Made by a program: the position numbers and the translations under genes
Notes under the pieces: generated by a model
The model's database searches: none
Told to the model about the DNA's origin: nothing
What the model saw: only the letters and a program-made list of their open reading frames with translations
Shown here: positions 29,450-36,162 of the stretch, in pieces
How the letters are laid out: each line of letters begins with the position of its first letter
Position numbering within the stretch: the stretch's first letter is position 1
DNA from: Escherichia phage IME08
Sequence record: NC_014260.1
Reading direction: 5' to 3' (one strand)
Length of the DNA stretch: 64,000 nt

Positions 29450-30033
29450 TTACGGCATTCCTCAATAAAAGAGTTTAATGTATTTTTCTTGGAGATATCA
29501 TCATATACCTTTTTAACTTTAGAAATACGAAAAGGTACTTCGATAACCGAGGTCCATAAAAATGACGCAATAAGACCCGAGATAGCCGCAGACATCGCTG
29601 AAGCGAATACACAAATAGGCAGGTCATTATCTGTTGTCAGGAAAAACCAAAGGAGTGGAAAAAATAATATTCCCATCCAAACATAGAACCTAGAACTCAC
29701 TAATTTGTCATATTCGTCACTCCATGCGCGAAAGCCGTATTTTTTACTATAACAAATCAACGGGTCCGGAGTCTGCTCTTTATGTGGTTCAGGTTGCCAA
29801 CCGTTTACGATATAACCCATTTTATATTCCTCAATTAAAAGCTGTTTCATTTCAGCAGTACAACCTGACCAATCTATTGTACTGGCTGAAATTCCTTCAT
29901 CACCGTCATCGAGATTTCGCCAGGACTTTTTAATAATCATATTCTCACCGCTTGGGATAATAATTCCGGCATTTTCCGACCGACGGATGAAGTTTACATC
30001 AATGCCCATACACCCGGGTTCATAAAGGGCCAT
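29446..30033 (-). CDS. Membrane protein (195 aa)
   Basis: C-terminal hydrophobic segments (FYVWMGILFFPLLWFFL, AMSAAISGLIASFLW). Confidence 0.45.
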   Translation of the reverse strand: MALYEPGCMGIDVNFIRRSENAGIIIPSGENMIIKKSWRNLDDGDEGISASTIDWSGCTAEMKQLLIEEYKMGYIVNGWQPEPHKEQTPDPLICYSKKYGFRAWSDEYDKLVSSRFYVWMGILFFPLLWFFLTTDNDLPICVFASAMSAAISGLIASFLWTSVIEVPFRISKVKKVYDDISKKNTLNSFIEECRK

Positions 30034-30719
30034 TACCAGCCCTCCATAGGGAATTCCAGATAAACTTGAGCATTAACACGGATTTCATTAGTAATCTTTT
30101 TAACACGGTCGGTATTACGAGAGACACGACCAAACCAGCGCCAACCGTTACTTACTGCACGAGAACCTGTATGCCATGTCTGCCAATCAAATTGGAGCAA
30201 CGTGCGGTCAGGAGCATCCCACTTGGTTAATTCATTGGACTCAATTTTTTCCAGAACTTCTTTATGCCACTGGCGATAGATAAGTTCGCCTTCAGGAATC
30301 TGGCTAAATTGCGCAGTTCCGGTTGCAAAATGGGTAGGACACACATCAGCGTTAACAAGACCAAGAATATGTTCAGAATGGTAACGAGGATTATCATAAT
30401 CAGGCTGCCCTGCGGTAATAAAGTGTTGGCCAACCGGAATATCCGGACGTGGTACATCATCATGGTGATAACCTGGGATAGCAGGGTACCAGCCAGGCAT
30501 CAGCATATGAACACGAGAATCAAATACAACCCGGTCAGTGTTCCAATCATCCGGTAGGTTCATGATGAAGCTGCGAGTAATAGGGCCACCATTATCAAAA
30601 GCGAAGGCCAACGAGCTGTTGAAGAACATAGGTTCGTTTTTGATTTTATCATTAGAAATTTTACCAGCGAAACCACCTACTGCACGAGCTTTAGAATTAA
30701 AAGTTTTTGGACCGTTCAT
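30033..30719 (-). CDS. Hypothetical His-rich protein (228 aa)
   Basis: Several H-x-D/H clusters (HMLMPGW...GYHHDD...H); no family assigned. Confidence 0.45.
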   Translation of the reverse strand: MNGPKTFNSKARAVGGFAGKISNDKIKNEPMFFNSSLAFAFDNGGPITRSFIMNLPDDWNTDRVVFDSRVHMLMPGWYPAIPGYHHDDVPRPDIPVGQHFITAGQPDYDNPRYHSEHILGLVNADVCPTHFATGTAQFSQIPEGELIYRQWHKEVLEKIESNELTKWDAPDRTLLQFDWQTWHTGSRAVSNGWRWFGRVSRNTDRVKKITNEIRVNAQVYLEFPMEGW

Positions 30720-31024: not shown

Positions 31025-31984
31025 TTATTTTTCGAAAGGACGAATTAAATGATGGTTATCTTGGAATCGTTTGATGTAGTCGTTTTCACCTAAAGTCTTG
31101 TACATATTAACCACAGCTTGGTAGTTTTCCCAGGCGTACTCACGGAACCAACCTGAAGTGATTGAGGTACACACTTTCTCAAGAGCCATATAGAAACTTA
31201 ATGATGGTGAAATATTGAAGTCATTAGGAACCTGTGAACGTTCTAGTGCCAGGACACAAGTTTCTTCATATACACCAGCCAGTTTAATAGCTTCAGGCAA
31301 AGCCTCGAACTTCTCACGAGAGGTCATGACTTCAGAACCTTCCTTCATATAAAAGGTATATGCCGGGCGCCCTGCCAATGCCACGGCTTCATGGATAGAG
31401 TCGTGGTCTAGCGTATAAATGGTATCGTTAAAGAACGATGATTTGTTTACATCCAATTTAGGGTGGGAATAGCTCAACGTTTCTTTTTGACGCTGCAGCA
31501 TAATTTCCTGGAGTTCTTCATTCAGGGTGATACCTTTATTACGAAGGTATTTGATGTGGGACATAGTTTTCAAGAAGAAAGGATTATTCTTCAGGAAACG
31601 ATGAGAGGTTTTGATAGCCAGACAGATATCAGGCGTAGCCCAATAGAAACCTGTAAGACGGTCCTTTTTAATACGATTTTCAGCATATTTCAGGAGACGA
31701 TAACTTGAGGTGAAATCTTCGTCTTGGAGCTCACCAGTGATTTCACGTACGTTAGTCAGAGCACGGACGATATAAGCTTCGAAATAGGTTTCTTTACCAT
31801 TATGCATACATTTGAAAGCCTGAACATCAGGATTGTCAACGTGTACATGGGCGCCGAACATCCGAGCTTTAAAGTGGTTCCATGAGCCTTGGTCGGCAAT
31901 GAAATCCCAATCAGAATTTTCGATATACTTATTTTCAATCAGACCAGCGTGGTGCAGTGCGCGAGAACCAATAACTAGCATCAT
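31025..31984 (-). CDS. Hypothetical protein (about 319 aa)
   Basis: Start at MMLVIGSRALHHAG with SD GAGGAAAA; N-terminal GS...SDWD is NTase-like but the spacing is atypical. Confidence 0.45.
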   Translation of the reverse strand: MMLVIGSRALHHAGLIENKYIENSDWDFIADQGSWNHFKARMFGAHVHVDNPDVQAFKCMHNGKETYFEAYIVRALTNVREITGELQDEDFTSSYRLLKYAENRIKKDRLTGFYWATPDICLAIKTSHRFLKNNPFFLKTMSHIKYLRNKGITLNEELQEIMLQRQKETLSYSHPKLDVNKSSFFNDTIYTLDHDSIHEAVALAGRPAYTFYMKEGSEVMTSREKFEALPEAIKLAGVYEETCVLALERSQVPNDFNISPSLSFYMALEKVCTSITSGWFREYAWENYQAVVNMYKTLGENDYIKRFQDNHHLIRPFEK

Positions 31985-32003: not shown

Positions 32004-32243
32004 TTAAATTTCGGCAACGTAAGTGTTATGCAATTCCCACATATCATTGGAATTACTCTCAACGATAGGAATTATCTCATTAGAAATTTCTTCTGCATAA
32101 GGGTCATTGATACAGTGAGCATCTTCAAAACGAACACCGTAATCAGACTTCTTATAAGCAAAGCCATAAATCTTTTTAAACTTGGCACGAGTAATGCGTA
32201 CCGGTTCATTAGACTTATCGGACATCGGAGCGTAATACCACAT
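32004..32243 (-). CDS. Hypothetical protein
   Basis: 79-aa ORF. Confidence 0.4.
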   Translation of the reverse strand: MWYYAPMSDKSNEPVRITRAKFKKIYGFAYKKSDYGVRFEDAHCINDPYAEEISNEIIPIVESNSNDMWELHNTYVAEI

Positions 32244-32286
32244 ATGTTCTCCTCATGTTTGTGTAGGGTAATAGTAACACGTATTT

Positions 32287-32637
32287 TTAGAGTTGTACAT
32301 CACTTCTGCAATATTCTAAAAATAATTTATCGTTGTCTACCGTATCCCAACGACGCCAAGATGGATTCCAGACCAGAGCGTTGTCACCACAATCATTGAG
32401 CTTAAAATGGTCGTAGTACATAGCTATACGTCTAGTTTCGTCACCAGAGAACCCCAGTATAGGCTCGCCATGGGTGTGATACATATGATGGTGCATTGAG
32501 AGGTCGCATTTGTAAAACATCTCACGTTTACCACGAACGAACAAGAAGGCTTGCCCATTCATATAGAATTCTTTATCTGTTTTCAAAAGATATTTGAATA
32601 CTGAATCTTTATGCATAAGTCCTCCTACCACATCCAT
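32287..32637 (-). CDS. Hypothetical His-rich protein
   Basis: 116-aa ORF containing HHHMYHTHGE. Confidence 0.4.
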   Translation of the reverse strand: MDVVGGLMHKDSVFKYLLKTDKEFYMNGQAFLFVRGKREMFYKCDLSMHHHMYHTHGEPILGFSGDETRRIAMYYDHFKLNDCGDNALVWNPSWRRWDTVDNDKLFLEYCRSDVQL

Positions 32638-32646
32638 GTGGTTAAA

Positions 32647-32874
32647 TTATTTTCCTAACGAAACACGAGTAGGTTTTTTACCAAAATAGTCTTCGTAAGA
32701 ACCATCTAAACGGCCTGCTTTAGACCGACAATACGAATCATACTTTTTGTAATAAGTCATCTCGGTATTATAACGTGGGTGTCTATCAGCCATAATAATA
32801 CTTAGTGGCCAACCTTTGGCATAATCGCGAAGACCGTTTATTTTACGAATGTATCGTTTTTTCAATTTTAGCAT
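32647..32874 (-). CDS. Hypothetical basic protein
   Basis: 75-aa ORF. Confidence 0.4.
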   Translation of the reverse strand: MLKLKKRYIRKINGLRDYAKGWPLSIIMADRHPRYNTEMTYYKKYDSYCRSKAGRLDGSYEDYFGKKPTRVSLGK

Positions 32875-33092
32875 GAGCTTGGGTACCAGATTTTACCATC
32901 GGATCGAGCAACGAAGGTGCGACCAGCTTCTTCACCATAACAAGAGCTATTCAGCCAATCTTCGAGACGAACTTCACCGTCATAATCATCGAGCTCAACA
33001 CCAAAATCCTGAGCAGAAGCCATATCTTTTACTTTCTTATACAGTGCAGCCAGTTCAAGTGCCGCTTTTTCTAATTCATTAATATCAGTCAT
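32868..33092 (-). CDS. Small acidic protein, W-SSS-C tail family member 5
   Basis: Start at MTDINELEK (SD AAGGTGA); C-terminus ...GKIWYPSSC. Confidence 0.45.
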   Translation of the reverse strand: MTDINELEKAALELAALYKKVKDMASAQDFGVELDDYDGEVRLEDWLNSSCYGEEAGRTFVARSDGKIWYPSSC

Positions 33093-33102
33093 TTTTATCA
33101 CC

Positions 33103-33312
33103 TTAGCAAGACATAGAGGAGCTAAACCAGAAACCTTCACCTTCAGGAATACCGTAGTCATCACGGACCCATTCGTAATCATCATATTCCGGACTAGAAG
33201 CTGGAATATATTCTTCGCCACCAGCGTGGAAGTGCTGACCTGTTTCGTCAGCCACAGACTGGCCTTTACGTACTAATTCACGGATTTGTTTTTCAATTTC
33301 ATCAATAGTCAT
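33103..33312 (-). CDS. Small acidic protein, W-SSS-C tail family member 4
   Basis: 69 aa; C-terminus ...GFWFSSSMSC. Confidence 0.45.
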   Translation of the reverse strand: MTIDEIEKQIRELVRKGQSVADETGQHFHAGGEEYIPASSPEYDDYEWVRDDYGIPEGEGFWFSSSMSC

Positions 33313-33321
33313 TTTATTTCC

Positions 33322-33519
33322 TTAGCATTCGTAAGAGGAGGACACCCAAGAGGTACCACTAATAGTAATACAACCGTTATAAAGCGTGATATGTCGTTCT
33401 AGGTCACGAACACCATCGATATAGATATCGGCTTCTTCGCGTTCTTCTTTACAAATCTGGATAACGTTTTCAATAGCTGCGGCTGCAGTACGGATTGCAC
33501 AATCTAATTCACGAGACAT
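33322..33519 (-). CDS. Small protein, W-SSS-C tail family member 3
   Basis: 65 aa; C-terminus ...TSWVSSSYEC. Confidence 0.45.
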   Translation of the reverse strand: MSRELDCAIRTAAAAIENVIQICKEEREEADIYIDGVRDLERHITLYNGCITISGTSWVSSSYEC

Positions 33520-33528
33520 AATAATTCC

Positions 33529-33810
33529 TTAACATTCAGAAGAAGAGGACACCCAACCACCATTTTCCAGGTCAGTTGTATAGTCATGAGTATTAACAAT
33601 AGCCCATTCAGGATGACCATCTTCTTCCCAGTGGGCCAGGTCAGCTTTCAGGGCGCCAGGAGAATAATAGTCACCGCCCATACCGCGAGCAGGGTATATA
33701 TTAAAATGAGTCTCATATTTGTCTGCAATTTCCTCAGCACGACGAATAGCTTCATGGATTTCTTTTACTGCGGCCAGAAGCTCCGGGTTGTTATGGTTAT
33801 CATTCATCAT
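33529..33810 (-). CDS. Small acidic protein, W-SSS-C tail family member 2
   Basis: 93 aa; C-terminus ...GGWVSSSSEC; internal EEIADKYETHF. Confidence 0.45.
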   Translation of the reverse strand: MMNDNHNNPELLAAVKEIHEAIRRAEEIADKYETHFNIYPARGMGGDYYSPGALKADLAHWEEDGHPEWAIVNTHDYTTDLENGGWVSSSSEC

Positions 33811-33819
33811 AGCGTTTCC

Positions 33820-34110
33820 TTAGCACATTGCTGAAGAGGAGACCCAAGCACCAACTGTAACGACGCCGTTTTCAACTTCACCGCCGTTGTTTTCAATTTC
33901 ATCTTTAAACCACTGGGAGCATTCATAACCGACAGGATAATATGTACGGCCTGAACCATAATCACCGGTACCGAATTGGATACCATACTTATCGGCAATA
34001 GCTTCACATTCATGTTCGATGGTATTCACTTTATTCAGAAGAGCATAGATAGCCTTTTCTGCAGATTTCTCATCGTTGTGTTCTGGGATTTCGATTTCAA
34101 TTTTATTCAT
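33820..34110 (-). CDS. Small acidic protein, W-SSS-C tail family member 1
   Basis: 96 aa; C-terminus ...GAWVSSSAMC; internal EAIADKYGIQF. Confidence 0.45.
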   Translation of the reverse strand: MNKIEIEIPEHNDEKSAEKAIYALLNKVNTIEHECEAIADKYGIQFGTGDYGSGRTYYPVGYECSQWFKDEIENNGGEVENGVVTVGAWVSSSAMC

Positions 34111-35673: not shown

Positions 35674-35703
35674 ATTATACCCTGTCCTCTGAGGGATGTA
35701 AAC
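35674..35703 (-). promoter_or_regulatory. T4-type early promoter
   Basis: Minus strand GTTTAC, 18 nt, TATAAT; inverted repeat GAGGACA/TGTCCTC. Confidence 0.5.
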
Positions 35704-36128: not shown

Positions 36129-36158
36129 TCATAATATCTTAATCATGAGCCCATGTAA
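36129..36158 (-). promoter_or_regulatory. T4-type early promoter
   Basis: Minus strand GTTTAC, 18 nt, TATTAT; perfect inverted repeat ATGGGCTCAT/ATGAGCCCAT. Confidence 0.55.
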
Positions 36159-36162
36159 ACAA

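Follow-up and report, generated by a model that had tools for sequence, protein, structure and literature searches.

Nucleotide addition to tRNA 3′ ends is the activity of the MenT toxins, and the ANT and Lnu enzymes add nucleoside monophosphate (NMP) to the hydroxyls of small molecules; in protein nucleotidylylation of the MNT, GlnD and GlnE type, the acceptors described so far are Tyr residues located in folded loops. Among large phages, the T4-like group is the best studied, and yet most genes of its hyperplastic early regions are without a known role. Here, a stretch of 64,000 nucleotides (nt) from Escherichia phage IME08 (NC_014260.1; the window) was analysed, in which five consecutive minus-strand genes (A–E) encode small acidic proteins that share a C-terminal tail and lie upstream of a gene for a predicted nucleotidyltransferase carrying DUF7277 and DUF7275 (the enzyme). 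MenAT1 and the wider MenT/AbiEii (DUF1814) toxin-antitoxin systems represent the closest known system; MenT1 is blocked by an upstream antitoxin of 68 amino acids (aa) that is built around a long helix (PMC10435456). The linkage reported below points to an undescribed two-part phage system. The window proteins are members of phrog_899, phrog_4882, phrog_2141 and DUF7277/DUF7275, that is, of PHROGs and Pfam clusters already known and annotated as “unknown function”; the tail motif and the pairing of small proteins with an enzyme were met in no paper found. Searches of the accessible literature by DUF or PHROG name, by locus tag and by tail sequence returned nothing relevant.

The association between the tail and the enzyme was observed from both directions. 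In the window, the partner gene is on the same strand as the array, 0.9 kb downstream of gene E (Table 1). All 10 phage records retrieved with a small protein contained a ∼300–320-aa DUF7277+DUF7275 gene downstream on the same strand, and the ten products were mutually homologous (41–84% identity) and all belonged to phrog_2141. When IMG/VR was searched with the enzyme, 80 loci were obtained, of which 74 have open reading frames (ORFs) encoding the tail on the same strand within ∼3 kb. The number of tail ORFs per enzyme locus ranged from one to six, and their position was upstream of the enzyme in all loci except L088. Tail ORFs were present in 20 of 21 enzyme lineages, the 21st being represented by a locus with merely 353 nt of upstream sequence. 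Among metagenome contigs retrieved by divergent small proteins, the enzyme gene was found downstream in each of the five that had room for it, usually at a distance of 12–17 nt. No third gene co-occurs with this module across the 21 enzyme lineages. Five anonymous “hypothetical proteins” can thus be placed in a defined two-gene system, which has a sharp signature (an invariant Trp, two Ser and a terminal Cys), is distributed very widely and includes a predicted enzyme as the partner. In one metagenome contig (L096:2-2234), five tandem tail genes are followed directly by the nucleotidyltransferase; given that this contig is an unrelated phage fragment, multi-gene arrays have arisen or persisted independently of the T4-like lineage.

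Table 1. Positions in the window of the five tail genes, their junctions, the partner gene and neighboring features.
Feature	Position	Strand	Product or sequence	Match or basis
Gene A (tail protein subtype A)	33820..34110	minus	96 aa, ...IADKYGIQFGTGDYGSGRTYYP...GAWVSSSAMC	phrog_899, E 1.4e-23
Gene B (tail protein subtype B)	33529..33810	minus	93 aa, ...IADKYETHF..ARGMGGDYYSPG...GGWVSSSSEC	phrog_899, E 3.4e-19
Gene C (tail protein subtype C)	33322..33519	minus	65 aa, MSRELDCAIRTA...TSWVSSSYEC	phrog_4882, E 2.4e-36
Gene D (tail protein subtype D)	33103..33312	minus	69 aa, ...VADETGQHF...GFWFSSSMSC	phrog_899, E 2.2e-13
Gene E (tail protein subtype E)	32868..33092	minus	74 aa, terminus GKIWYPSSC	phrog_899, E 4.9e-10
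Four inter-gene junctions	33811-33819, 33520-33528, 33313-33321, 33093-33102	minus	Shine-Dalgarno sequence AAGGA/AAGGT	
Partner gene, DUF7277 + DUF7275	31025..31984	minus	319 aa	phrog_2141
Intervening small gene	32647-32874	minus	75 aa, basic, isoelectric point 10	phrog_7065
Intervening small gene	32287-32616	minus	109 aa	phrog_9796
Intervening small gene	32004-32243	minus	79 aa	
Best sigma-70/T4-early-type promoter match	35674..35702	minus	TTTACA-17-TATAAT, 11/12	consensus scan only

A structural model of the partner gene product was compared with known proteins. The model, with a predicted local distance difference test score (pLDDT) of 91, adopts a pol-beta nucleotidyltransferase fold that is closest to the MenT1, MenT3 and MenT4 toxins and to ANT(2''); the comparison gave values of 10.4 for the MenT1 toxin, 8.9 for TglT/MenT3, 8.8 for ANT(2''), 8.0 for MenT4, 7.8 for JHP933 and 7.3 for LnuA. 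The N terminus carries the pol-beta motif hhhGS...DxD, in which G6, S7, D25 and D27 are invariant and catalytic motif I is intact, and further invariant residues occupy the helical C-lobe (K125, H128, R129, H194-D195, E240-E241 and C272-R281), which also contains the invariant peptide CTSITSGWFRE. Across 49 diverse members, no nucleotidyltransferase Pfam model matched at E ≤ 1, PF08843/DUF1814 and RlaP included, and only DUF7277 and DUF7275 were recovered; PDB sequence searches with the single enzyme sequence and with a 49-sequence profile gave no real matches. RlaP (PF10127), the RNA-ligase-associated phage nucleotidyltransferase, was considered as the identity of the enzyme and set aside, as its model was not matched. 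Given the lack of a PF08843/DUF1814, RlaP or other nucleotidyltransferase Pfam match, the enzyme is described as MenT-like in its predicted fold but outside the MenT/DUF1814 family by sequence. A different putative nucleotidyltransferase, T4 nrdC.11 (L102:5435-6445; N terminus ..FGSHLYGTSTPESDVDF), does not match the DUF7277/7275 profile.

The likeness to MenT/AbiEii systems thus resides in the modeled pol-beta fold of the partner enzyme with its motif I/II (hG[GS]...DxD). By contrast, the phage enzyme has a much larger and highly conserved C-lobe (DUF7275), and its partners, present as one to six diverged paralogs with an invariant C-terminal tail, are unrelated to MenA1, MenA3 and AbiEi. No similarity in sequence or fold was detected between the small proteins and MenA1, which is a twisted V of two helices. 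The ANT(2'') and LnuA enzymes also differ, in that they are ∼160–180 aa in length, act on antibiotics and have no protein partner.

The tail family was defined as proteins of ∼50–150 aa ending in W-h-[S/A/P/T]-S-[S/T]-x(0-3)-C-COOH, and all five of the products A–E fall within it, the respective ORFs each terminating in W-x-[S/P]-S-S-(x-x)-C-stop. The logo of 184 family sequences reads [E/D]-G-G-W-[V/I/..]-S-S-S/T-x-x-C. Here, W(−7), S(−4), S/T(−3) and C(0) are invariant, the last two being scored on the 169 sequences with a 7-residue Trp-to-Cys spacing. This spacing was found in 169 of 180 sequences; the last residue is Cys in 172 of the 184 and is followed by one extra residue in 8. The terminal Cys is the only Cys in 91 of the 184 sequences, as it is in the products of genes B and D. 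The W-x-x-S-S core is not confined to the terminus: 44 of 145 representatives have internal copies of it, where composition-preserving shuffles would give 2.9; P0085 (WESSSEGWESSSEGWVSSSSQC) provides an example. The product of gene E likewise contains the motif core twice, as an internal DWLNSSCYGE (WLNSSC) and as the terminal KIWYPSSC, which has no x-x spacer before the Cys.

The placement of Ser/Thr at i and Cys at i+3, as in the 169 members with 7-residue spacing, resembles the arrangement in lanthipeptides and other ribosomally synthesized and post-translationally modified peptides, although subtype E (..SSC) is without this spacing. A precursor of this kind does not fit in other respects: no Pfam match to LanB/C/M/KC/L, YcaO, radical SAM or LanD was obtained among the neighbors, there is no conserved third gene, and the small protein is modeled as a confidently folded domain and not as an unstructured leader/core peptide.

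The five genes coincide with annotated “hypothetical protein” coding sequences of Enterobacteria phage vB_EcoM_IME341 (Dhakavirus, Tevenvirinae; MH051917), to which the window is 100% identical, and the ORFs themselves are 100% identical. The first-pass annotation of the window, which was made from the sequence without database searches, had described a tandem minus-strand array of acidic, aromatic-rich proteins with these tails and an ADKY-type motif in at least two members. Coordinates and tails were reproduced exactly. The computed isoelectric points are 4.2–4.6 and the net charges −6 to −12; Phe, Trp and Tyr account for 6–13% of the residues. The ADKY-type motif reads IADKYG in A and IADKYE in B; D (VADETG) and E (SAQDFG) have weaker versions of it. 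The ORFs are intact in relatives, as judged from 83 records at the nucleotide level and 391 by tblastn. A further remark, that the family was not recognized from T4, agrees with a profile scan of T4 bases 1–72,000, including the syntenic e.2-e.3 junction, in which neither the enzyme nor the tail family was detected.

Each junction within the array reads TG(C/T)-TAA-GG(A/T), so that the Shine-Dalgarno sequence begins within the TAA stop that follows the Cys codon, and 9–10 nt separate the stop from the following ATG. The start ATG of gene A and the stop of the e.3-like gene before it overlap (ATGA). The near-identity of the junctions in this phage (TGY-TAA-GGA, 9–10 nt to ATG) raises the question of whether the terminal similarity is a nucleotide-level artefact, such as the embedded ribosome-binding site or gene conversion among neighbors could have produced. 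The junction sequence does mediate recombination: gene C is subject to a presence/absence polymorphism among close relatives, and a 97%-related phage (locus L013:2603-2716) lacks exactly the 207-nt unit of gene C plus its junction, the deletion junction lying inside GAATGTTAAGGAA, within the repeated tail and Shine-Dalgarno sequence GAATG(T/C)TAAGGAA. This DNA therefore also serves as a recombination site that alters the copy number of the array.

A survey of 135 distinct sequences that encode the tail, drawn from phage loci both related and unrelated, nevertheless refutes the artefact. Ser is encoded at its three positions by codons of both classes (AGY in 17–30%, TCN in the remainder), the Cys codon is TGC in 84 and TGT in 51, and the stops include TAA, TGA and TAG. 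Downstream of the tail genes were found a GGA-type junction, an overlapping ATG, a long spacer, a hairpin or no next gene at all. Given that Ser and Cys codons, stops and downstream context all vary, and that the motif does not change across ∼260 clusters defined at 50% identity in unrelated phages, an origin at the nucleotide level is extremely improbable. The tail is, on the evidence of these coding sequences, under selection at the protein level and not imposed by the embedded Shine-Dalgarno sequence, as the first-pass annotation had argued for the W-x-SSS segment.

Homology beyond the tail was assessed by removing it and scoring the remaining bodies against a tail-less hidden Markov model built from 141 unrelated metagenomic members, for which shuffled controls reached a maximum of 7–16 bits. 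Scores of 64.5, 60.7 and 39.3 bits were obtained with A, B and D, respectively, whereas C and E gave 3.5–3.8 bits, within the range of the shuffles. The tandem array of paralogs proposed at first reading holds up in part: by this measure A, B and D have a homologous body, and C and E share only the tail motif with the others. The body common to A, B and D comprises a helix ending in A-D-x-x-G-h-x-F, followed by a YG(M/S)GG..YYP loop. In an AlphaFold2 model of subtype A (pLDDT 92), a 29-residue helix is followed by a small β-sheet, of which W-V-S-S forms the last strand (block pLDDT 96; 77 for the final five residues). No PDB fold match was found for this model, and scans of A–E and their neighbors against Pfam, NCBIfam and PADLOC gave nothing above threshold.

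A profile search of 1.84 billion representatives recovered the ∼260 small-protein clusters, nearly all of 60–150 aa with the match extending to the final residue. The top two matches, P0040 (4728 aa) and P0041 (2519 aa), were discarded as compositional: both are repetitive and rich in Ser, Thr and Ala, with many partial matches. Orthologs of A–E recur in Dhakavirus, Gaprivervirus, Mosigvirus, Karamvirus and the Klebsiella T4-like phages (Marfavirus), and A plus E alone constitute a minimal module in Aeromonas, Serratia and Cronobacter phages. By these comparisons, the subtypes A–E are old and anciently diverged.

The genomic context of the module varies from the e region in Tevenvirinae to a position beside nrdD in Aeromonas phages, and it is also present in phi92-like, Pseudomonas Otagovirus-like and Acinetobacter T4-like phages and in ∼360-kb jumbo phages. 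The enzyme forms ∼2,500 clusters at 90% identity, essentially all on phage contigs. When a degenerate DNA pattern for CTSITSGWFRE was sought in 100,044 bacterial and archaeal species genomes, two contigs matched; both are contigs of 73–87 kb from metagenome-assembled genomes, and the one with upstream sequence carries two tail ORFs. The module is, on these counts, restricted to phages and essentially absent from bacterial genomes. Its occurrence in virulent phages is a further difference from the MenT/AbiEii systems.

The reading that we favor, tentatively and as a possibility that leads the field rather than a likely one, is that the small acidic proteins are protein partners of the linked nucleotidyltransferase, which nucleotidylylates the tail Ser residues, the two forming a two-component phage module. 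Given the conserved two-gene module, the aromatic anchor with three nucleophiles, the repetition of W-x-x-S-S and the NMP-to-hydroxyl chemistry of related enzymes, we infer that the small proteins contact the enzyme through the tail. The two components would interact physically, the tail entering the active site and Ser acting as the acceptor. In such a scheme, the enzyme would recognize the Trp-anchored tail and transfer NMP onto the invariant Ser hydroxyls; one enzyme could thereby modify or activate effectors of different bodies (subtypes A–E) that carry a common tag, and the terminal Cys might serve a second chemical or metal-binding step. MNT, which AMPylates the HEPN toxin, and GlnD and GlnE, which act on PII and glutamine synthetase, belong to the same fold superfamily and also have one or more small protein partners, and by analogy the hydroxyls of the partner may be the acceptors in the phage system. 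The phage acceptor would differ in being a Ser-rich C-terminal tail, and there is no sequence relationship.

Substrates are preferred to other kinds of partner because several ancient subtypes that share only the tag are kept beside one enzyme, an arrangement better suited to one enzyme with many substrates than to a single toxin with its antitoxin, because the conserved tail residues look chemical rather than interface-like, and because the motif is multi-copy in many members, as is common for motifs that are recognized or modified at several sites. Should the small proteins prove to be substrates, the module would represent a new protein modification by which many effectors are deployed by one phage enzyme. 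A more specific and more doubtful proposal is that of an undescribed protein-tagging chemistry, in which the MenT-like enzyme would O-nucleotidylylate Ser of a portable W-x-S-S-S-x-x-C tag on diversified effectors. Here, the reaction could end with Ser-O-NMP as its product, or Ser-O-NMP could act as a leaving group and allow the terminal Cys to form a thioether or another covalent bond, either inside the tail or with a host target. If true, this would imply enzyme-armed effectors of host takeover or anti-defence across T4-like, phi92-like, Otagovirus-like and jumbo phages.

Several observations weigh against the substrate proposal. The AlphaFold2 model places W-V-S-S in a confident strand, so that the Trp may be a core residue and the segment not a free tail. 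The enzymes nearest to the phage nucleotidyltransferase in structure modify tRNA 3′ ends rather than proteins, and upstream antitoxins neutralize them, which favors the inhibitor reading described below. The invariant terminal Cys is not accounted for. In five loci (L072, L074, L076 and L082, from one sub-lineage, and L033), the enzyme is present with no tail ORF within 4 kb upstream, and in the window three unrelated genes separate the array from the enzyme.

Ranked close behind the substrate proposal, and likewise no better than possible, is a role for the small proteins as antitoxin-like regulators. The enzyme would then be a MenT-type nucleotidyltransferase of the tRNA acceptor end, serving as a toxin or in host shut-off, and the small proteins would bind it and neutralize or time it, as the 68-aa MenA1 does with MenT1; the Trp-Ser-Ser-Ser-Cys tail would block the active site in the manner of a pseudo-substrate. 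The gene order fits, given that the nearest structural relatives are toxins with upstream antitoxins. However, up to six anciently diverged paralogs per enzyme would be unusual for antitoxins, and the invariant residues are nucleophiles (Ser, Ser and Cys), not a helix such as carries the activity of MenA1. No sequence or fold match to MenA1, MenA3 or AbiEi was obtained, and such toxin-antitoxin systems live in bacterial genomes, from which the module is essentially absent (the two contigs described above, among 100,044 species genomes). The five enzyme-only loci also favor substrates over inhibitors. Were the small proteins inhibitors, virulent phages would be seen here for the first time to use a MenT-type toxin/antitoxin-like pair, which would bear on how phages manipulate tRNA and translation.

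Somewhat less credible again is that the small proteins act independently in host takeover or anti-defence, as DNA or protein mimics, decoys or sponges, their proximity to the enzyme reflecting a shared island of accessory genes; the tail would then bind a host target or a metal ion, with tails paired in dimers. The acidity of the proteins and their location in a hyperplastic early region, where internal-protein genes also lie, are compatible with this, as are the two W-x-x-S-S-C units in one chain of subtype E and the sole terminal Cys in half of the family, which would suit an inter-subunit metal or disulfide bridge. The main objection is the linkage, given that a near-constant association with the enzyme argues for an enzyme-partner relationship rather than a free-standing mimic or degradation tag. 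The first-pass annotation had suggested DNA-mimic anti-restriction proteins; A–E are as acidic as Ocr, ArdA and Arn would lead one to expect, but they resemble these known mimics in neither fold nor sequence, and the suggestion was not borne out. It had also suggested a sorting or degradation signal, and a tail that serves as a C-terminal degron, read by a host protease, or that directs packaging does agree with the strictly C-terminal position of the tail (172 of 184 sequences ending at Cys) and with the existence of known terminal tags, namely bacterial C-terminal degrons and the T4 capsid-targeting sequence. Such a signal is nonetheless improbable, as internal copies of the motif core are common, W-V-S-S is modeled within the fold, and the linkage to the enzyme would be left unexplained. 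For capsid sorting in particular, the promoter context is early-type rather than late, and no T4 internal-head-protein targeting sequence (MKTYQEFIAE-type, with a gp21 cleavage site) is present in the N termini of the five proteins (MNKIEIEIPE, MMNDNHNN, MSRELDCA, MTIDEIEK and MTDINELE, compared with MKTYQEFIAE in T4 IPII).

The array is situated in a hyperplastic region, between a homolog of e.2 and homologs of e.3 and e.6; in T4, e.2 and e.3 are adjacent with nothing between them. Internal-protein genes are also found in this region, between nudE/e.2 and e.6. A second near-consensus early-type promoter match (TTTACA-17-TATTAT) is present at 36131-36159 on the minus strand, and both predicted promoters lie upstream of the block of e.6-like genes leading into the array. 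No terminator-like site was detected by a scan of the minus strand between the best promoter match and the array, and the module is probably expressed early.

The three genes between the array and the enzyme (32004..32874) are, by comparison with other lineages, lineage-specific inserts rather than a conserved part of the module. The basic 75-aa ORF begins within the end of gene E, its ATG overlapping the Cys codon and the stop (tcATGcTAA), which suggests that translation of these acidic and basic small proteins is coupled; the basic ORF is not conserved alongside the module in other lineages. In the sub-lineage L072/L074/L076/L082, a 177–178-aa ORF (MFKVGDRVEIAEGSRYYGQ...) ends ∼43 nt before the enzyme instead, and in L076 the enzyme gene, a possible pseudogene, is divided between two ORFs. 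A 228-aa protein encoded at 30033-30719 of the window was evaluated as a third component; it co-occurs in only 2 of the 21 enzyme lineages and is probably outside the module. It contains a conserved stretch, HMLMPGWYPAIPGYHHDDVPRPD...NEIRVNAQVYLEFPMEGW, has no Pfam match, and is encoded again in Tevenvirinae and in Aeromonas phage Aswh_1, at 1–1.4 kb downstream of the nucleotidyltransferase.

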